A DNA stretch of 64,000 nucleotides from an uncultured Desulfobacteraceae bacterium (GCA_913060875.1 CAJXSL010000008.1:18807-82806); one strand, 5' to 3'; positions 56,729-64,000 are shown, counted from the first letter of the stretch. A program made the numbers and translations. The notes: generated by a model not told the origin, from the sequence alone.

Positions 56729-57679
56729 CTATTTGTAAACCAGTTTGGGGGTTTCCAGCATGACACGGGTATTGGCCGGCACGGATTCCGTCAACCAGAC
56801 GCTGCCGCCGATGGTGGTGTTGGCGCCGATGACCGTTTCCCCGCCCAGAATCGTGGCGCCCGAATAAATCACCACGTTGTCCTCGATGGTCGGGTGGCGC
56901 TTTTGGTAGCGCAGCTCCGCCACCATTTCCCGCGGCAGGGAAAGGGCCCCCAGGGTCACGCCCTGGTAGATGCGCACGTTGTCGCCGATTTCCGTCGTTT
57001 CACCGATGACGACACCGGTGCCGTGATCGATCACAAAGCGTTTGCCGATCTTGGCCCCGGGGTGAATGTCGATTCCGGTGTGGCTGTGGGCATATTCGGT
57101 CATGATGCGCGGCAGCAGGGGAACATCCATCTGGTGGAGCTGATGGGCCAGGCGATAGACCGTAAGGGCGTACATGCCGGGGTAGCTGAAAATGATTTCA
57201 TCGTGGCTTTTGGCGGCCGGATCGCCGTCAAAGGCGGCCTGGACATCGGCGGTAAGGGTTTTGCGAAGCTCCGGAACGGCCTTCAGGACTTCCAGGGCGA
57301 CTTCATATCCTTTTTCGGTATGCCGGGCGCAGGGCCGGTCGTGCCGGAAGCACTCATGCCGGACGCTCAGGGCAACCTGATGCGAAAGGCTGTCGAAAAA
57401 ATGCGAGACCGCCTGCCCTAGACTATAGCGCAGGTTGGCGGGATCGAGTCTTTCATTGGAAAAGTAGCCGGGGAAAACGATTTCCCGGAACTGGTTGATG
57501 ATTGCCACCACGGATTCCCGGGAGGGTATCGGGTCGAACTCCACGTGGGTGAAGCATTTCACCTCATCGCAGATGTGGATGATGTCTTCGGCGATGGCCG
57601 GTATTTTTTCACGGTAGCTGGAGAGCAATTTCGTTTCCCGGGTGCACAGGGTTTTCCTGTCGAAGGCTTCATCTTTCAT
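56729..57679 (-). CDS. cysE: Serine O-acetyltransferase (long EpsC/CysE type)
   Basis: GDPAA, SYPG, GIDIHPGA, IDHGTG, KRHPT. Confidence 0.93.
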   Translation of the reverse strand: MKDEAFDRKTLCTRETKLLSSYREKIPAIAEDIIHICDEVKCFTHVEFDPIPSRESVVAIINQFREIVFPGYFSNERLDPANLRYSLGQAVSHFFDSLSHQVALSVRHECFRHDRPCARHTEKGYEVALEVLKAVPELRKTLTADVQAAFDGDPAAKSHDEIIFSYPGMYALTVYRLAHQLHQMDVPLLPRIMTEYAHSHTGIDIHPGAKIGKRFVIDHGTGVVIGETTEIGDNVRIYQGVTLGALSLPREMVAELRYQKRHPTIEDNVVIYSGATILGGETVIGANTTIGGSVWLTESVPANTRVMLETPKLVYK

Positions 57680-57753: not shown

Positions 57754-59121
57754 CTAAAGCTCCCGGTGCAAATCGATGCCGTATTTTCTGATCCGTTTCC
57801 AAACCGTGACACGACTGACCCCCAGGCGCCGGGCCGCTTCGGACTGGTTGCCGTTCGCCTTTCGCAGGGCCATCATCAGGGCCTCGCGCTCCGGGGTAGA
57901 GCCGGCATCGACGCGGCGGGCGGCGGTGCCGGGTCCGGCTTCTCCCTGTGTAATGCGGTGAGGCAGATGCTCGGGGCCTATCCAGCCGCCGGGACACAGG
58001 ACAAAGGCATATTCGACGGTGTTGCGCAACTCACGCACATTGCCGGGCCAGGCATAGGCCAGCAGGGCATCCAGGGCGTCGGGCGAAAATCCCTCAATGG
58101 TTTTTCCGCTGCGCTGGTTGTTTTGCCGAATAAAGTTCTGGACCAGGGCTGGGATGTCTTCCATGCGATCCCGCAACCCGGGCATGGTCAGGGGAAAGAC
58201 ATTGATGCGAAAAAAGAGGTCTTCGCGAAAGCGATTCTCGGCCACGCTTTGGTCCAGATCCTTGTTGGTGGCCGATATCACCCGGACATCCACCTGAATT
58301 GGCTTGTGGTCCCCCACCCGTTCGATTTCCTTTTCCTCCAGAACCCGCAGGAGTTTGACCTGGGTGGCCGGGGGAATATCGCCGATCTCGTCCAGGAAAA
58401 TGGTGCCCCCGTGGGCGGCTTCGAACCGCCCGACGCGATCCCGGTCTGCGCCGGTGTAGGCTCCTTTGACATGACCGAAGAGTTCGCTTTCCAACAGATT
58501 TTCGTTGAGGGCGGCACAGTTGACCTTGATAAAAGGTTTGTTTTTGCGGGGGCCCGCTTCGTGTACGGCGCGGGCGGCGAGTTCTTTTCCGGTGCCGCTG
58601 GGCCCGTGGATCAGCACCGGGGCATCGCTCTGGGCGACATTGTCGATGAGTTCAAACAGGCGCTGCATGGGGGGCGCATGGCCGATAATGCCGTGGAATC
58701 CGTCATCAAGGTGGCAGGACTGGCGCAGGGAATTGATTTCCTGCTGCTGGCGGACGACTTCGGAGATGTCGGTGAGGGTTTCGATGGCACCGACCACCCG
58801 GCCGTGATCATCCTTCAGCACCGTGGCATTCTTCATGACGAACAGGGCGCGGCCGCTTTTGTCGGTAATCGTGCATTTCTTGGCACGAATGCGCTTGTTG
58901 ACATAGAGACCGCACCAATCCTTGCCGGCGCCCCGGCCGAAAATCTGGCACCCCGAGCAGTTCAGTATCCGGCAGTTCTGGCCCACCAGTTCCTCGGCCG
59001 AATAACCGGTCAGTTTTTCCGCGGCCGGATTCACGTTCAGGATCGTTCCCCGGGTGTCGACCACGAGCAGGCCGTCGTGCAGGGTGTTGACGATGGTTTC
59101 CCAGAAACTGGCGATATCCAT
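57754..59121 (-). CDS. Sigma54-dependent enhancer-binding protein (PAS-AAA-Fis)
   Basis: Cys-rich PAS; GPSGTGKE; [15 protein letters not shown]; WPGNVREL; Fis HTH. Confidence 0.94.
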
Positions 59122-59427: not shown

Positions 59428-59443
59428 TGGCATCATCGTTGCT
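59428..59443 (+). promoter_or_regulatory. Sigma54 (-24/-12) promoter of the octaheme cytochrome operon
   Basis: TGGCATCATCGTTGCT; divergent sigma54 activator gene adjacent. Confidence 0.8.
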
Positions 59444-59565
59444 TTTTATTCCTGAATCACAAATTTGCGGCTTAGATCCCCTGCGGTAATAAATCGTCTT
59501 TACACCGGCAAACGTGGGCGTCTGCCGGTGGGGTTTCGATCATATCAAGCAATAGGAGCGGATGA

Positions 59566-61230
59566 ATGCAACGTATGACATTGATGTTAGCCGGCTGGGT
59601 ATTGTCGACGCTGGTCGTTCTCGGGGCGATCGGGCCTTCGGCAGCGCATGCCCAAATCGAGGCGCGCGATGTAAATCAGGCTCCCGGGCGGACCATGGCC
59701 CAGCAGGCGACCAAAGAGCGACAACTCTGGATCACCGCCGATCATTCGAAACATGAAATCCTGCAGCAGGAATTCAGCTCCGGTCCCGAGGTGACCAAGG
59801 CCTGTTTGTCCTGCCATTCAGAGGCTGCCGCCCAGTTTCACAAGACCATTCACTGGACCTGGATGGATCCTTCCACCGAAGATAACCTGAAGCTGGGTAA
59901 AGGCGGGCTGTCCATCAACAACTTCTGAGTGAACATCCAGAGCAACGAGGCTCGTTGCACATCATGCCATGCCGGCTACGGCTGGAAAGACGCCAAAAAA
60001 TTCGATTTCACCGATCCGACCAGGGTAGATTGCCTCGTCTGTCACGAACAGACCGGCACATACAAGAAATTTCCTGCCGGTGCCGGCAACCCGGTCAAGG
60101 AGACAAAAGTATTCAAAGGCAACAAGAAAACATATCATCCGCCCGAATGGAACAAGGTGGCCCAGAGCGTGGCCCGGCCGGGCCGTAAAAACTGTGGATC
60201 CTGCCACTTTTTCGGTGGTGGCGGCGACGGTGTCAAACACGGCGATCTGGATTCGTCCCTCATGAAGCCCAGCAAGACACTGGACGTTCACATGGGTGTG
60301 GACGGTCAGAACTTCGACTGTGTCCGCTGTCATTCCACCACGCTGCACCACATCGCCGGCCGGGTCTACACGACACCGGCATCCAAACACCGCAAAAGCC
60401 TGATCGAGGACGATCTGGCATCCAAGATCACCTGTGAATCCTGTCACAGCAGCACACCCCACAAATCCCACAACAAGGCCAACGACCATACCGACAAGGT
60501 GGCCTGCCAGAGCTGCCACATCCCCGAATATGCGCGGGTGCAACCGACCAAGATGTGGTGGGACTGGTCCACGGCCGGTAAAAAGAAAAACGGCAAGCCT
60601 TATCAGGAAAAAGGTGAACTGGGAAAGCCGGTCTATGATACCAAAAAGGGCGATTTCGTGTGGGAAAAGAACGTTAAACCCGAGTACTTCTGGTTCAACG
60701 GATCCCTGCAGCAGCTGACCGTCAAAGATACCATCGACCCGAGCAAACCGGTGCGGATCAACTGGCCGGTGGGCAGCCGGGAGGATGAACACTCGCGGAT
60801 TTTTCCGTTCAAAGTCCATCGCGGCAAACAGCCCTACGACAAAGTCAACAAGACCCTGACAATCCTGCATCTTTTTCCGAAAGGCAAAGACGACAAGGAC
60901 GCCTACTGGAAGGGGTATGACTGGAATAAAGCCATCGCCTACGGTCAGGACTATGCCGGTCTGCCCTATTCCGGTGAATACGACTTTGTGGAAACCAGCT
61001 ATGTGTATCCCACCACCCACATGGTGGCGCCCAAAGACAATGTGGTGGCCTGCATCGAGTGCCACAGTGCGGATGGACGTCTGGCATCGCTGGCGGGATT
61101 TTACATGCCGGGCCGGGACGATTTTAAAGCCATCAATGTCTTCGGGTGGATTCTGGTTCTGGGCACATTGGTGGGCGTTACCTTTCACGGCCTGGGACGC
61201 GCCATTTCAAGAGGTCGTAAGGAGGACTGA
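59566..61230 (+). CDS. Tetrathionate-reductase-family octaheme c-type cytochrome, probable selenoprotein (TGA 59926-59928 = Sec)
   Basis: ORFs 59566-59928 and 59929-61230 are in frame; signal peptide and 1 CxxCH lie before the TGA, 7 CxxCH after it; context INNF*VNIQSNEARCTSCH. Confidence 0.88.
59929..59965 (+). other. Putative bacterial SECIS element
   Basis: GCAACGA-GGC-TCGTTGC hairpin (59942-59958); G-led apical loop about 20 nt after the UGA. Confidence 0.7.
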
Positions 61231-61232
61231 AC

Positions 61233-61919
61233 ATGACAGGCAAGAAAATGGTCAACACTTATCTTTATACACGCTACGAACGCTTCTGGCACTGGCTGCA
61301 AACCACCCTGATCACCATTCTGCTGGTGACCGGCTTTGAGGTGGACGGCCTCTACACGCTGATGGGATATGGAACAGCGGTCGAAGTCCATAATTTTGTC
61401 GGGCTGACCTGGCTGATCGCTTTCGCTTTCTTTGTTTTCTGGCTTCTGACGACCGGTGAATGGAAGCAATACGTGCCCACCACGAAAAAGATGTTTACCG
61501 TCATTCACTATTACATGATCGGTATCTTCCGCGGCGATCCGCACCCGGTGCCCAAACGCAAGGAGGCCAAGCACAACCCCCTGCAGCGGATCGCCTACCT
61601 GTCCGTGGCGGCCTTCCTGCTGCCGATCCAGATGATTTCCGGATTTCTTTACTGGGGTTACAATTCCTGGGCGGCCTGGGGCCTGGACTGGTTGAGCCTG
61701 CCGGTGGTCGCGGCCATTCATATCCTGGGGGCCTTCGGCGTGCTCAGTTTCCTGGTCGGGCATGTTTACATGACTACCACGGGCCACACCCTTTTCGCCC
61801 ACATCCGGGCCATGATCACCGGCTGGGAGGAGATTCAGGAAGGGGTCGAGCTGGAGGATTGGGAAAAACGTCAACGCAAGGGCCGCAAGGCCGGCGAACC
61901 GGAAGCGCCTTCGGCCTGA
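61233..61919 (+). CDS. Cytochrome b subunit (PhsC/HyaC-like membrane anchor)
   Basis: ERFWHW, EVHN, HNPLQR, IHIL..GHVY heme-ligand His residues; four TM. Confidence 0.9.
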   Translation: MTGKKMVNTYLYTRYERFWHWLQTTLITILLVTGFEVDGLYTLMGYGTAVEVHNFVGLTWLIAFAFFVFWLLTTGEWKQYVPTTKKMFTVIHYYMIGIFRGDPHPVPKRKEAKHNPLQRIAYLSVAAFLLPIQMISGFLYWGYNSWAAWGLDWLSLPVVAAIHILGAFGVLSFLVGHVYMTTTGHTLFAHIRAMITGWEEIQEGVELEDWEKRQRKGRKAGEPEAPSA

Positions 61920-61968: not shown

Positions 61969-62007
61969 GCAGGCAGCGCCGCAACCAGCGGCTCTGCCTG
62001 CTTTTTT
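61969..62007 (+). terminator. Rho-independent terminator
   Basis: GCAGGCAGCGCCGC..GCGGCTCTGCCTGC followed by T6. Confidence 0.75.
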
Positions 62008-62118
62008 GGGTCCCTTTGATGCCGGCCCCTTTGCTTCCTGCAATTGATGCTTACCATGTTCGTTACGCTAGTCAAAAACGCGGTCCAATCGTGAATGAAT
62101 TCATTTGGAGGTGATCGT

Positions 62119-62949
62119 ATGTGGGAATATACGGACAAGGTCAAAGAGCATTTTCTCAACCCGCGTAATGTGGGGGCCATCGAGAATGCGGATGGCGTGG
62201 GTGAGGTCGGCTCACTGGCCTGCGGCGATGCTTTGACCCTTTATTTTAAGCTGGATGGTGATGGGCGCATCCAGGATGCTAAATTTCTGACATTCGGCTG
62301 CGCCAGCGCCATTGCCTCGTCTTCGGCCCTGACCGAGATGATTATCGGCAAGACTCTGGAAGAGGCCGAGAAAATCACCAATGAAGATATTGCCGATTTC
62401 CTGGGGGATCTGCCCAAGGAAAAAATGCACTGTTCCGTCATGGGCAAAGAAGCCCTGGACAAGGCCATTGCCCACTACCGCGGGGAGGCGGCCAGGGCGC
62501 CGGACGGCAACATCGTCTGCGAATGTTTCGGTATCACGGACCGGGAAATTGAAAAAACCATCCGGGAGCACCGCCTCACGTCCATCGAGGATGTCACCGG
62601 CTATCTCAAGGCCGGCGGCGGCTGCGGGAAATGCCATGACAACATCCAGCAGATTATGGATCATGTTTTCGGCCAGCCGGTCAGCATTCAACCCCAGGCG
62701 AAAAAAATGACCAATATCCAGAAAATTCGCCTGATCGAAGAGACCCTGGAGCGGGAGATCAAACCGGCCCTGCATCAGGATGGCGGGGATATCGAGCTGG
62801 TGGATGTCGACGGCGTGCGGGTCATGGTCAAGCTGCGCGGGACCTGTGCCGGTTGCAGCGCGGCCCAGGTTACCCTCAAAAACGTGGTGGAAGCCAAACT
62901 GCGCGAACTGGTCACTACGGATCTTGTGGTCGAGGAGGTGCGGGCATGA
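62119..62949 (+). CDS. nifU: Fe-S cluster scaffold NifU
   Basis: MWEYTDKV; CGD, FGC, KMHC; CECF..GCGKC; DGGD..CAGC (three-domain NifU). Confidence 0.95.
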   Translation: MWEYTDKVKEHFLNPRNVGAIENADGVGEVGSLACGDALTLYFKLDGDGRIQDAKFLTFGCASAIASSSALTEMIIGKTLEEAEKITNEDIADFLGDLPKEKMHCSVMGKEALDKAIAHYRGEAARAPDGNIVCECFGITDREIEKTIREHRLTSIEDVTGYLKAGGGCGKCHDNIQQIMDHVFGQPVSIQPQAKKMTNIQKIRLIEETLEREIKPALHQDGGDIELVDVDGVRVMVKLRGTCAGCSAAQVTLKNVVEAKLRELVTTDLVVEEVRA

Positions 62950-64000
62950 AAACCGTCTACGTGGACAACAATGCGACGACCCAGGCCGCGCCGGAAGTGG
63001 TGGACGCCATGCTGCCTTTTTTCACGGAACGCTACGGCAATGCTTCCAGCATGCATAGCTTTGGTGGAGGGTTGATCGTCGATATCCGCCGGGCCCGCGC
63101 CCGGGTGGCGGATCTGATTGGGGCCCGGCCCGACGAAATTCTTTTCACCAGCGGAGGGACGGAGAGCGACGCCACGGCCATTCATGCCGCGTTGCAGTCC
63201 AATCCGGGCAAACGCCATATCGTCACGACCCGGGTGGAGCATCCGGCCATCAAAAATCTCTTCGAGCAGTATGGCCAAAACGGATACCGGGTGACCGTCG
63301 TCCCGGTGGATGGTCAAGGACGGTTGGATCAGGAGACCCTTCTGAAGAGTTTGGATGATGATACGGCCATCGTGAGCATCATGTGGGCCAACAACGAGAC
63401 CGGTGTCATCAACCCCATGGACGACCTGGCAAGGGAAATCCGTTCGCGCGGCATCCTTTTTCATACCGACGCTGTCCAGGCCGTGGGCAAACTGCCCATC
63501 GACGTCGGCCGCACCAAGGTCGACCTGTTGTCCATGTCGGCCCATAAATTTCATGGCCCCAAGGGCATCGGCGCCCTTTACATCCGCAAAGGGACCAAGT
63601 TCAAACCCCTGGTGGTCGGGGGGCACCAGGAAGCGGGCCGGCGGGCCGGCACCGAAAATGTGCCCGGTATCGTGGGGATGGGCAAAGCCTGTGAACTGGC
63701 GGGGCAGCATCTTGAGGATGTGGGCACCCGTGTGCGCCGTTTGCGGGACAAACTTGAACAGTCCCTGCTGCGGGCCGTGCCCCGGTCCATGGCAAACGGG
63801 GGGCAGTCGGACCGCCTGCCGAACACCAGCAGTATTGCTTTCGAATATGTGGAAGGTGAAGCGATTCTTCTGCTGATGAACGAGCACGGGATTTGTGCAT
63901 CTTCCGGGTCGGCCTGCACCTCCGGATCACTGGAGCCTTCCCATGTGTTGCGCGCCATGGGGGTGCCCTTTACGGCGGCGCATGGTTCCATCCGCTACAG
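62946..64000 (+). CDS. nifS: Cysteine desulfurase NifS (3' end truncated by the window)
   Basis: YVDNNATT, FTSGGTE, HTDAVQ, SAHKFHGPKG, SSGSACTS; missing from the ORF track because there is no stop in the window. Confidence 0.95.
   Translation, partial: MKTVYVDNNATTQAAPEVVDAMLPFFTERYGNASSMHSFGGGLIVDIRRARARVADLIGARPDEILFTSGGTESDATAIHAALQSNPGKRHIVTTRVEHPAIKNLFEQYGQNGYRVTVVPVDGQGRLDQETLLKSLDDDTAIVSIMWANNETGVINPMDDLAREIRSRGILFHTDAVQAVGKLPIDVGRTKVDLLSMSAHKFHGPKGIGALYIRKGTKFKPLVVGGHQEAGRRAGTENVPGIVGMGKACELAGQHLEDVGTRVRRLRDKLEQSLLRAVPRSMANGGQSDRLPNTSSIAFEYVEGEAILLLMNEHGICASSGSACTSGSLEPSHVLRAMGVPFTAAHGSIRY

Follow-up and report, generated by a model that had tools for sequence, protein, structure and literature searches.

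A gene pair at positions 59566-61919 of the analysed window (the whole stretch of 64,000 nucleotides) most probably constitutes a two-gene operon, which encodes an exported, selenocysteine (Sec)-containing octaheme cytochrome c of the octaheme tetrathionate reductase (OTR) family and a cytochrome b, and which would be fed by quinol and engaged in chalcogen or oxyanion chemistry. Codon 121 of the first gene is an in-frame UGA (59926-59928) at the column of a conserved active-site cysteine and, from the sequence comparisons detailed below, is predicted to be decoded as Sec.

Under Table 11, the cytochrome c region (plus strand) was translated as two open reading frames (ORFs): 59566-59928 (120 amino acids) and 59929-61230 (433 amino acids, GTG start). 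The TGA that separates them lies in the frame of the ATG at 59566, and no further stop or frameshift was found in the gene. When this TGA was read as U, a single protein of 554 residues was obtained, ending at a terminal TGA (61228-61230), so that the gene spans 59566-61230 with its stop included; a ribosome-binding site (AGGAG, 59554-59558) was read from the sequence 7 nt 5' of the ATG. The original prediction, that one in-frame TGA interrupts an otherwise intact gene, was borne out. The read-through product had also been predicted to carry a signal peptide, eight CxxCH motifs and a C-terminal membrane helix, and the motif count and hydropathy agree: the eight motifs start at residues 80, 131, 156, 210, 252, 290, 314 and 496, and the two top-ranking 19-residue hydropathy windows begin at residues 4 and 522. 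The first window lies in a signal-peptide-like N-terminus (residues 1-29, ...SAAHA/Q; 59566-59652; model helix at residues 2-27), for which the cleavage site was assigned by eye. The second lies in a predicted transmembrane helix (residues ~522-545; 61129-61200), modelled by AlphaFold as a helix at residues 521-549 (block pLDDT 79-93). For the whole cytochrome c, AlphaFold2 was supplied with 49 sequences (the query plus 48 full-length sequences, hand-picked from the best 120 matches) and the mean pLDDT was 61.6; because heme-binding parts scored below 50 (residues 110-143 and 204-314), residue 121 is not placeable relative to heme 2 in this model. Synonymous and nonsynonymous changes relative to a 95%-identical relative (L029) numbered 23 and 13 before the TGA and 33 and 9 after it, and, judged by these counts, the TGA-split gene is one ORF under selection.

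The protein matched the OTR family model TIGR04315 at 634.9 bits (cut-off 375) over model positions 1-440 of 440, with 632 bits in the genome search, and matched the Shewanella oneidensis OTR chain (PDB 1sp3_A) with an E value of 6.8e-123 over residues 63-507. The family is large: 7943 of 8000 scored candidates had E values of 1e-50 or lower. In the alignment with 1SP3, U121 faces Cys64 (SINNFCV), and the aligned stretch of 1SP3 reads SINNFCVAISSNEPRCTSCH. This alignment confirmed the family motif given in the original prediction (NNFC..SN..RCTSCH), together with the claim that the TGA stands for a conserved non-heme cysteine beside heme motif 2, which is Cys64 of the 1SP3 chain. The heme-2 binding motif, CTSCH (residues 131-135), is encoded at 59956-59970 and overlaps the 3' arm of the hairpin described below. 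Upstream, Lys112 of a Gly-Lys pair (59899-59901) is the counterpart of Shewanella Lys56 and probably serves as axial ligand to the active-site heme 2. Both G111 and K112 were unchanged in 49/49 aligned proteins, and the pair was located 8 or 9 residues N-terminal of the Sec/Cys column in all 81 related loci that were compared. Mowat and co-workers are said to have found in 2004 that Lys56 ligates heme 2 in the Shewanella enzyme, and Cys64 presumably sits in the distal pocket of that heme. The passages on OTR in PMC7096707 and PMC8840924 are silent on Cys64.

The second gene (61233-61919, plus strand) starts 3 nt past the cytochrome c stop and encodes a 228-residue cytochrome b (PF01292, 93.5 bits; cut-off 30.1), in which His20, His53, His104, His163 and His177 were constant in 36/36 aligned sequences. 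The protein fell below the cut-offs of both the PhsC equivalog NF011582 (101.1 bits; cut-off 204) and the hydrogenase cytochrome b equivalog (40.2 bits; cut-off 121.5), and on these scores it is assigned to the wider PF01292 family only. With the di-heme cytochromes b of this family (HyaC, FdnI, PhsC) it shares the PF01292 match and the five constant histidines, but its partner is a multiheme cytochrome c instead of an iron-sulfur subunit. The partnership itself, already proposed in the original prediction, is backed by gene order and by a complex model. A cytochrome b homologue was located directly 3' of the cytochrome c gene in 54 of the 81 loci (gap -12 to +184 nt). A model in which the cytochrome b, carrying two hemes, was combined with residues 470-554 of the cytochrome c scored 0.80 (best of three controls: 0.20), with at least 95% of the contacts shared between runs and a partner pLDDT of at least 72; the C-terminal helix of the cytochrome c was packed on cytochrome b residues 156-183 (helix 4). 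The mark used for such models is attained by 58/80 solved complexes and 2/110 mismatched pairs, counts which hold only roughly here because the model was built with its own alignments and with hemes riding along. Solved complexes of a cytochrome b with a periplasmic subunit anchored by a single helix are available (formate dehydrogenase-N and hydrogenase-1), so the pass may reflect likeness to these precedents. The contact with helix 4 presumably resembles that in the FdnH/FdnI structure.

In the mechanism that we propose, the C-terminal helix would hold the cytochrome c at the periplasmic face, packed on the cytochrome b, and electrons would pass from menaquinol through the cytochrome b hemes and the eight c hemes to the heme 2/Sec site. 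At that site, Sec would replace the invariant non-heme cysteine, nine residues past the lysine expected to ligate the catalytic heme 2, and a substrate bound at this heme, either an oxyanion or one with a chalcogen-chalcogen bond, could undergo nucleophilic attack by the selenolate. Tetrathionate, polysulfide and thiosulfate-type S-S bonds are the candidates, with selenite as a further possibility, and heme electrons would then resolve the Se-S adduct so formed. No gene that would name the substrate was seen in the neighbourhood of the locus.

The same Sec enzyme might instead serve detoxification or ammonification by reducing a nitrogen oxyanion, either nitrite or hydroxylamine, with the Sec/Cys residue merely tuning the pocket. 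We consider this substrate assignment unlikely, though it has a precedent in the NrfA nitrite reductase, where a Lys-ligated heme is the catalytic centre. In vitro activity of Shewanella OTR in reducing both compounds is also on record (Atkinson et al. 2007, cited in a passage of PMC13510729). Against it, the column was occupied by Cys or Sec in 81/81 loci, a constancy which suggests a chemical role of the residue. Sec usually substitutes for a catalytic, redox-active cysteine, and the carriers are mostly sulfate- or sulfur-metabolising bacteria. Finally, a Sec-containing multiheme cytochrome of another family, MccSep, cleaves S-S bonds via its Sec, according to the part of PMC13510729 that deals with this enzyme. 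None of these points is decisive, even when they are taken together, and chalcogen chemistry is retained here as the preferred reading.

Cys and TGA codons alternate at a single column among the relatives of the gene. At the column of U121, TGA was found in 39 of the 81 related loci and TGC or TGT in the other 42, and an NN[FY]U column holds the TGA in every one of the 39. The TGA is not peculiar to one strain, since the 39 loci span many genera and three parts of the family tree. A natural Cys orthologue exists within the same genus as well (loci L026-L028). A search of 61 related genomes gave 66 match rows, 14 of them with one TGA; in 401 genomes sampled evenly from the phylum, one TGA was present in 30/70 matches above the cut-off and in 0/11 below it. 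Species-representative genomes contain the exact combination of codon and hairpin (TGA-N13-GCAACGAGNCTCGTTGC) in 119 stretches or more and, among the matches listed, 78 of 80 stretches contained in-frame OTR genes. Cultured strains with this combination include Desulfosarcina alkanivorans PL12, Desulfosarcina cetonica JCM 12296, Desulfocicer vacuolatum DSM 3385, Desulforhopalus vacuolatus DSM 9700 and Pseudodesulfovibrio pelocollis SB368. Public gene calls contained fragments of 432-438 amino acids in 12 of the best 120 matches, and the five fragments examined all begin at the codon right after the TGA. The carriers belong chiefly to sulfate- and sulfur-metabolising lineages.

The codon itself was inspected in other contigs, where TGA was retained. 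A contig from a DNA run spans 59796-59963 with 0 differences; this run may be the source sample and hence not independent. A contig from an RNA library spans 59837-59975 and differs only at 59925 (C>T, synonymous), as from a slightly different strain; RNA-library contigs over the locus are no proof of transcription. Among the sequencing runs, the best contained 0.39 of the sampled words and none reached half.

A putative SECIS hairpin was located in the minimum-energy fold at 59942-59958 (plus strand), within the codons for S-N-E-A-R-C: a 7-bp stem GCAACGA/UCGUUGC (arms at 59942-59948 and 59952-59958) closed by the loop GGC (59949-59951). The original prediction had placed a hairpin with a G-led loop about 20 nt downstream of the TGA, in agreement with a stem that begins 13 nt past the TGA and a loop at +21 to +23. 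The distance rule of bSECISearch is ~16-37 nt from the UGA to the apical loop. The fold of the 71-nt stretch is within chance when considered alone (z = -1.46; 17/200 shuffles equally stable), and the weight therefore comes from the comparison of loci. All seven stem pairs were constant in 16/16 distinct sequences, and each of the six hairpin codons was represented by one codon in 19/19 loci, with two exceptions (GGC for AGC in one locus, TCT for GCT in one locus). The same positions are free to vary in Cys forms with N-E-x-R-C (n=13; 2-4 codons per hairpin position), and codons 11-18 of the same 19 genes had 2-5 synonymous codons, so the conservation of the hairpin extends to synonymous sites. 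No covariation was found in the GCAACGA-type stem across the 16 distinct sequences because this stem never varies. A second Sec group (20 loci) carries a different hairpin, CUGGUGC-AGGU-GCACCAG, 17 nt past the UGA, which was 99.2% paired and showed one compensatory change (C-G to U-A) in 2 sequences. From within the coding sequence, 13 nt past the UGA, the hairpin at 59942-59958 would recruit SelB and the Sec-tRNA.

A lower stem formed by UGAGUG and CACAUCA had also been proposed below this hairpin. The pairing is possible but is absent from the minimum-energy fold of the window and appears in the folds of some relatives only; as the bases that flank the GCAACGA-type hairpin differ between its 19 loci, the lower stem was rejected as a part of the element. 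An Rfam scan of 59850-60050 (E <= 10) returned no SECIS family, and two chance-level matches (a snoRNA and a miRNA family).

The Sec machinery that was searched for is present in the genome: tRNA-Sec (selC; 75.6 bits, gathering score 47; anticodon TCA by ARAGORN), selB at 355.6 bits, selA at 616.4 bits and a pair of selD genes (374.3 and 367.5 bits), all of them above their curated cut-offs. Each of the selD genes carries one in-frame TGA. Across relatives, selA was found in 34/35 genomes with TGA forms and in 33/34 genomes with Cys forms only, and its presence was dropped as a discriminator between Sec and Cys, with 67/69 genomes positive. In one TGA-carrying genome (G196, 99% complete), selA was not matched even at E = 0.001, although selB is present.

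If the UGA acted as a stop, two products would be expected: a monoheme cytochrome of 120 amino acids and a heptaheme protein of 433 amino acids translated from the GTG at 59929. This is very unlikely, even though a GTG immediately follows the TGA and gene callers start there in 5/5 fragments examined. The 433-residue part has no signal peptide; heme is attached to cytochrome c in the periplasm, so the part would have no route to the compartment in which its hemes are attached. Of the 19 loci with the GCAACGA-type hairpin, just 5 have GTG directly after the TGA (ATG, ATC, GTT, GTC or ATA in the others), and the Cys relatives have one continuous domain across both parts.

An intact protein would likewise be produced if the UGA were read through by other means than Sec insertion (near-cognate Cys or Trp, or an altered code), which we regard as highly improbable. 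TGA terminates both the cytochrome c gene and the cytochrome b gene, so the genetic code is standard, and the genome holds a complete Sec system. In addition, a conserved hairpin at a SECIS-like distance accompanies every TGA form, and the column is otherwise always occupied by Cys, the usual counterpart of Sec.

The two ORFs given by Table 11 and the post-TGA part that stands alone in 12 of the best 120 public gene calls would also fit a pseudogene, created by a nonsense mutation in an ordinary Cys-type octaheme cytochrome. The likelihood of this is minimal: 39 loci, spread over many genera and three parts of the tree, have the TGA at one column, no second stop or frameshift has accumulated, nonsynonymous changes are outnumbered by synonymous ones both before and after the TGA, and the hairpin is constant in TGA forms only. 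A sequencing or assembly error is next to inconceivable: the true codon would be TGC or TGT, and close relatives do have Cys codons that differ from the TGA by a single base, but the DNA-run contig (possibly from the source sample) and the RNA-library contig retain the TGA, which is shared by the 95%-identical relative and 37 further loci.

The protein was compared with known systems. Shewanella OTR (1SP3) has in common with it the TIGR04315 match, the eight CxxCH motifs, the Gly-Lys pair and the NNF-C/U-...-SNE-x-RCTSCH pattern. It differs in carrying Cys64 in place of Sec and in its crystallised chain (443 residues), which is without the C-terminal membrane helix: the alignment stops at residue 507 of the present protein. 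We take Shewanella OTR to be a soluble periplasmic protein with no adjoining cytochrome b gene.

In Table 1 of a 2026 review (PMC13188914), TIGR04315 is entered as a 'GenBank annotated' selenoprotein family, with WP_331457571.1 as example; in that row, the Sec-motif column holds a '-', and neither a reference nor an analysis is given. The GenBank/RefSeq Sec proteins referred to in this row share the family model and the single Sec with the protein described here. The gene in the window very probably adds one to their number, and because the family is already in the table, the finding is not new in kind. The literature search found no experimental or comparative study on Sec in TIGR04315; the supplements of the review and of the MccSep paper may list the family.

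The known precedent for Sec in such a protein is MccSep/ExtKL of Geobacter sulfurreducens (GSU2937-2936), a pentaheme Sec polysulfide reductase: according to the sections of PMC13510729 that deal with it, this multiheme cytochrome c uses Sec to reduce polysulfide and selenite. In the same account, MccSep resembles the present protein in being a periplasmic multiheme cytochrome c of the Desulfobacterota with one Sec near the catalytic heme 2, a SECIS-like hairpin at most 30 nt past the UGA, and Sec/Cys alternation in the family. It differs in its five hemes, Cys-ligated active heme, Ig-like stem and tetrameric assembly (PMC13510729), whereas the protein in the window combines eight hemes with a probable Lys ligand, a membrane anchor and a cytochrome b partner. 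The MccSep family model (NF040886) was absent from the five NCBIfam matches of the protein at E <= 0.01, and on this profile comparison the two families are unrelated.

A wider reading, to which we assign somewhat less than an even chance as a whole, is that the OTR family forms a second class of heme-Sec catalysts, independent of MccSep and far more widespread, with a Lys-ligated heme and Se-S or Se-Se intermediates. The same joint and tentative estimate covers three further points: that approximately four in ten members in the phylum would use Sec, with at least 5 or 6 Sec/Cys exchanges; that the two SECIS hairpins would dictate the peptides SNEARC and SNWCRC; and that fused 13-heme versions would pair with quinol oxidases of the NrfD type, not the cytochrome b type. 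The points of this reading were absent from the print found, the row of the table in PMC13188914 excepted.

The SNWCRC version has an extra cysteine beside heme motif 2.

Repeated swapping of Cys and Sec at one invariant residue by a catalytic heme singles the residue out as chemically active and suggests nucleophilic chalcogen chemistry. After MccSep (2026), the octaheme protein would be the second type of heme/Sec enzyme, and one common in sediment bacteria that cycle sulfate and sulfur. Gene callers blind to Sec split such genes, and their number is therefore underestimated in surveys of selenoproteomes and multiheme cytochromes.

The ends of the operon were searched for regulatory elements. 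A terminator-like hairpin with a T run was found 3' of the cytochrome b gene by a consensus scan (61987-62002, plus strand); with five such sites in the region and 3.6 expected, this one is weak on its own. On the other side, a divergent gene (57754-59121, minus strand) was identified by Pfam matches as encoding a sigma-54 enhancer-binding protein with a PAS sensor, an AAA+ sigma-54 interaction domain and a Fis-type HTH (PF00158, 245 bits; PF13426, 54.8 bits; PF02954, 51 bits). A sigma-54 (-24/-12) promoter-like site, TGGCATCATCGTTGCT, lies at 59428-59443 (plus strand), 122 nt 5' of the ATG. Across the 64-kb window, TGGCAYN5TTGCW is matched at this site only (expectation, 0.18; at least one match in 18/100 shuffles). 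A relaxed sigma-54 motif was present 5' of the gene in 12/81 loci, with no other match on both strands of 685,872 nt. From its position and the promoter motif, the divergent sigma-54 activator probably regulates the octaheme operon, and the site at 59428-59443 would probably drive transcription under this PAS-containing protein.

A comparable arrangement is described in the passage of PMC4641369 on the Ohc complex (ohcBAC) of Desulfovibrio vulgaris, which is under the control of DVU3142, a sigma-54 activator: there, a periplasmic octaheme cytochrome c is accompanied by a heme b membrane protein, with a divergent sigma-54 activator and an upstream sigma-54 promoter. That passage makes no mention of Sec, and the gene for the iron-sulfur protein OhcB is absent from the present locus. 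A homologue with 68% identity (P0053) was labelled 'OhcA-like' by its depositors.

The in-frame TGA at 59926-59928 (forward strand) shares its frame with the ATG at 59566; an AGGAG at 59554-59558 precedes this start codon. Translation with table 11 gave two forward-strand ORFs: 120 aa (59566-59928) and 433 aa starting from GTG (59929-61230). When the TGA was read as selenocysteine (Sec, U), a single protein of 554 aa was obtained, terminated by a TGA stop and carrying eight CxxCH motifs (first residues 80, 131, 156, 210, 252, 290, 314 and 496); its two top hydrophobic windows were the N-terminus (signal-peptide-like, ...SAAHA/Q) and residues 522-545. The 120-aa half holds the sole export signal and one heme motif, and the 433-aa half holds seven heme motifs without an export signal; neither half is plausible as a cytochrome c alone. 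The original prediction had described this read-through product, incomplete in either half, as a Sec octaheme cytochrome c with a cytochrome b partner: the observation was confirmed and the interpretation is supported, and the genes very probably encode a functional Sec-containing cytochrome of the octaheme tetrathionate reductase (OTR) family with its cytochrome b.

The protein scored 634.9 bits with the family model TIGR04315 (cut-off 375) and matched the OTR chain of Shewanella oneidensis (1sp3_A) with E = 6.8e-123. U121 was aligned with Cys64 of this chain (SINNFCVAISSNEPRCTSCH), 10 residues ahead of the first Cys of heme motif 2, and is thus placed at the conserved non-heme Cys that the TGA had been proposed to replace. 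A Gly-Lys pair was found 8 or 9 residues ahead of the Sec/Cys column in all 81 loci compared, and was invariant in 49/49 aligned proteins. The OTR lysine (Lys56) is reportedly a ligand of the catalytic heme 2, and K112 of the window protein is likely its counterpart; Cys64 is presumably on the distal side of heme 2. The AlphaFold model of the window protein was unreliable precisely around the U121/heme 2 region.

Exactly one TGA was present in 14 of 66 match rows from 61 related genomes. The phylum, sampled evenly with 401 genomes, yielded 61 with a match above the family cut-off; one TGA was present in 30 of the 70 matches above the cut-off and in 0 of 11 weaker matches. Into the 81-locus set went every TGA row of both searches (39), 27 Cys rows from the first search and 15 from the second (40 stop-free rows above cut-off: 15 added, 2 already in the set and 23 left out). 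The anticipated Cys/TGA alternation was found at one column, after NN[FY]: TGA in 39/39 TGA loci and TGC or TGT in the 42 others. At least six Sec/Cys changes were needed on a quick maximum-likelihood tree of the 81 loci (five forced by well-supported branches), a count that is only indicative because the Cys forms were under-sampled.

In three species of the same genus (L026, L027 and L028), the orthologous locus carries a Cys-form octaheme cytochrome 71-73% identical to that of the window, with a cytochrome b 88-93% identical and an equally placed sigma-54 motif. This points either to much faster evolution of the cytochrome c gene than of its neighbour, or to replacement of the cytochrome c gene by recombination during a Sec/Cys exchange.

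The source genome (5.9 Mb, 99.7% complete) contains the full Sec machinery, as the reading of the TGA implied: tRNA-Sec (75.6 bits, anticodon TCA by ARAGORN), selB (355.6 bits), selA (616.4 bits) and two selD genes outside the window (source genome contigs C7:188817-189743 and C15:54858-55781). Each selD has one in-frame TGA, SelD itself being made as a selenoprotein, twice, in this organism. TGA is otherwise a normal stop and ends both operon genes. In another genome (G196, 99% complete), which carries a TGA-form OTR gene (L081) with the type-2 hairpin described below, two selB-like matches above cut-off were found, and a selA search down to E = 0.001 found none.

The hairpin GCAACGA-GGC-UCGUUGC (59942-59958, forward strand) starts 13 nt past the UGA and was present in the minimum-energy fold; 17 of 200 shuffles gave an equally good local fold, so the case for it is comparative. 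Nineteen Sec loci (type 1) encode (S/G)NE(A/S)RC, with proteins down to only ~40% mutual identity, and use AGC AAC GAG GCT CGT TGC without synonymous variation at any of the six codons; the exceptions (GGC and TCT, one locus each) are non-synonymous first-base changes outside the pairs. In the same genes, codons 11-18 use 2-5 synonymous codons apiece, and in 13 Cys-form genes the five positions of N-E-x-R-C are written with 2, 2, 4, 4 and 2 codons, respectively. The predicted hairpin is therefore conserved down to its synonymous sites; the lower pairing proposed with it (UGAGUG/CACAUCA) is not. As all seven pairs are invariant, the type-1 hairpin shows no covariation.

The 20 other Sec loci (type 2: L060, L065, L068-L071, L073-L077, L079-L086 and L089) encode SNWC(R/S/G)C and carry the hairpin CUGGUGC-AGGU-GCACCAG, 17 nt past the UGA. 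This hairpin was 99.2% paired; two sequences show one C-G to U-A double change, and two show G-C to G-U. Both types have A-G-G at the top. The RNA signal accordingly constrains the protein, with Ala (GCU) in Sec forms in place of the Pro of Cys forms, and Trp-Cys in type 2. The type-2 hairpin forces Trp-Cys-(Arg/Ser/Gly) right before heme motif 2, hence CxCxxCH with one extra cysteine, which is absent from Cys forms and type-1 Sec forms.

The exact motif TGA-N13-GCAACGAGNCTCGTTGC was sought in a single genome of each species, and at least 119 stretches carry it. Among the 80 matches listed, 78 were OTR genes read in frame (76 recognised by pattern, the other two being L146 and L161) and two (L111 and L172) were chance matches. 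Most carriers among the matches listed belong to Desulfobacterales, Desulfovibrionaceae or Desulfohalobiaceae, several of them cultured strains; MAGs labelled Acidobacteriota, Holophagae or Pseudomonadota account for a few. Three loci from MAGs with these labels (L162, L167 and L179), with the exact motif within an OTR frame, could reflect lateral transfer or binning error.

The cytochrome b gene (61233-61919, forward strand; 228 aa, PF01292 93.5 bits) begins three bases past the cytochrome c stop. A homologue followed immediately (gap -12 to +184 nt) in 54/81 loci, of which 6 are type-1 Sec, 17 are type-2 Sec and 31 are Cys forms. All 54 belong to one half of the tree, which has 58 loci (2 of its other 4 are cut by contig ends); in the other half, 0 of 23 loci have it. 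Five cytochrome b histidines were invariant in 36/36 sequences; the alignment used 35 of 53 full-length matches (the first 45 minus 10 running past the stop). The proposed partnership, consistent with this gene order, was also favoured by a complex model (cytochrome b, two hemes and cytochrome c residues 470-554), which reached a score of 0.80, the highest of three controls being 0.20; the runs shared at least 95% of their contacts, with partner pLDDT of at least 72. The complex-score mark was reached by 58/80 solved complexes and 2/110 mismatched pairs, a calibration that is only rough (the author's own alignments and riding hemes). In the model, helix 523-548 packs against residues 156-183 of cytochrome b, whose periplasmic loops are touched by the heme-8 region (496-501) of the cytochrome c. 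Similar solved complexes exist (formate dehydrogenase-N and hydrogenase-1) and may explain the pass.

The only sigma-54 consensus match in the window (0.18 expected) lies upstream of the gene at 59428-59443, and a protein with PAS, sigma-54-activator and HTH domain matches is encoded divergently (57754-59121, reverse strand). Every match to a relaxed motif in the 685,872 nt scanned lay upstream of the gene, in 12/81 loci. PMC4641369 describes the same layout for the Ohc octaheme cytochrome complex of Desulfovibrio vulgaris, where genes for an octaheme cytochrome c and a membrane protein with heme b stand behind a sigma-54 promoter, next to a divergently transcribed sigma-54 activator. Beyond a terminator-like hairpin, the operon is followed on the forward strand by a full-length nifU (62095-62949; NifU_N, BFD-like 2Fe-2S and NifU C-terminal domains) and a NifS/IscS-like class-V aminotransferase gene (62946-63998). 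A hexapeptide-repeat transferase, possibly a serine acetyltransferase, is encoded at 56729-57679 (reverse strand).

In the proposed mechanism, SelB would bind the hairpin and Sec would be inserted at residue 121; the cytochrome c would be exported, loaded with eight hemes and docked by its C-terminal helix onto the cytochrome b, which would oxidise menaquinol. Electrons would pass through the c hemes to heme 2, where the selenolate would attack the substrate over the iron, the Se-S adduct being reduced afterwards. Tetrathionate, polysulfide or a related compound, attacked at an S-S bond, would be the most plausible substrate, and selenite a possible one. MccSep, a Geobacter pentaheme cytochrome unrelated to the OTR family, with Sec-dependent polysulfide cleavage beside heme 2 (PMC13510729), shows that heme-adjacent Sec chemistry exists. 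The Sec protein may instead act on a nitrogen oxyanion, a role kept as a candidate beside S-S cleavage because nitrite and hydroxylamine are in vitro substrates of Shewanella OTR (as cited in PMC13510729).

The gene appears to be neither dead nor the product of sequence error: a pseudogene is contradicted by the synonymous excess on both sides of the TGA relative to L029 (95% protein and only 84% DNA identity; synonymous/nonsynonymous differences 23/13 before and 33/9 after), and a sequencing error by other contigs retaining the TGA. A DNA-run contig spans 59796-59963 with 0 differences (the run may be the source sample), and a metatranscriptome-library contig, no proof of transcription, spans 59837-59975 with the TGA kept and one synonymous change at 59925. 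Public gene calls often still split these Sec genes: 12 of the best 120 hits were fragments of 432-438 aa, and 5/5 fragments inspected start right after the TGA codon, with the N-terminus (M/V)N(I/V)(Q/K)SNEARCTSCH.

The predicted Sec-containing OTR cytochromes are a genuine and widespread group, yet already catalogued: the family (TIGR04315) is listed as a 'GenBank annotated' selenoprotein family in Table 1 of a 2026 review (PMC13188914), so annotators know the kind, and the window gene adds a member to it. No other mention of Sec in the family was found in the literature searched (main texts), nor any published account of how the Sec position maps to Cys64, what share of the family uses Sec, the two types of hairpin with the marks they leave on the protein, the recurrent exchange of Sec and Cys, or the cytochrome b module.

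Two paralogues lie elsewhere in the source genome. L064 (contig C16:74306-75847) is an 8-heme Cys form, 57% identical (54% by tblastn); a cytochrome b homologue was sought within 1.6 kb downstream and none was found. L054 (contig C12:66589-68694; locus positions 590-2695) is a second Sec form with the same TGA column and hairpin: 701 aa with 13 CxxCH, a class III cytochrome c3-like domain being fused ahead of the OTR domain. The gene immediately upstream encodes an NrfD-type membrane protein, in place of a downstream cytochrome b, and 11 Sec forms with 11-13 hemes, like L054, cluster in the tree.
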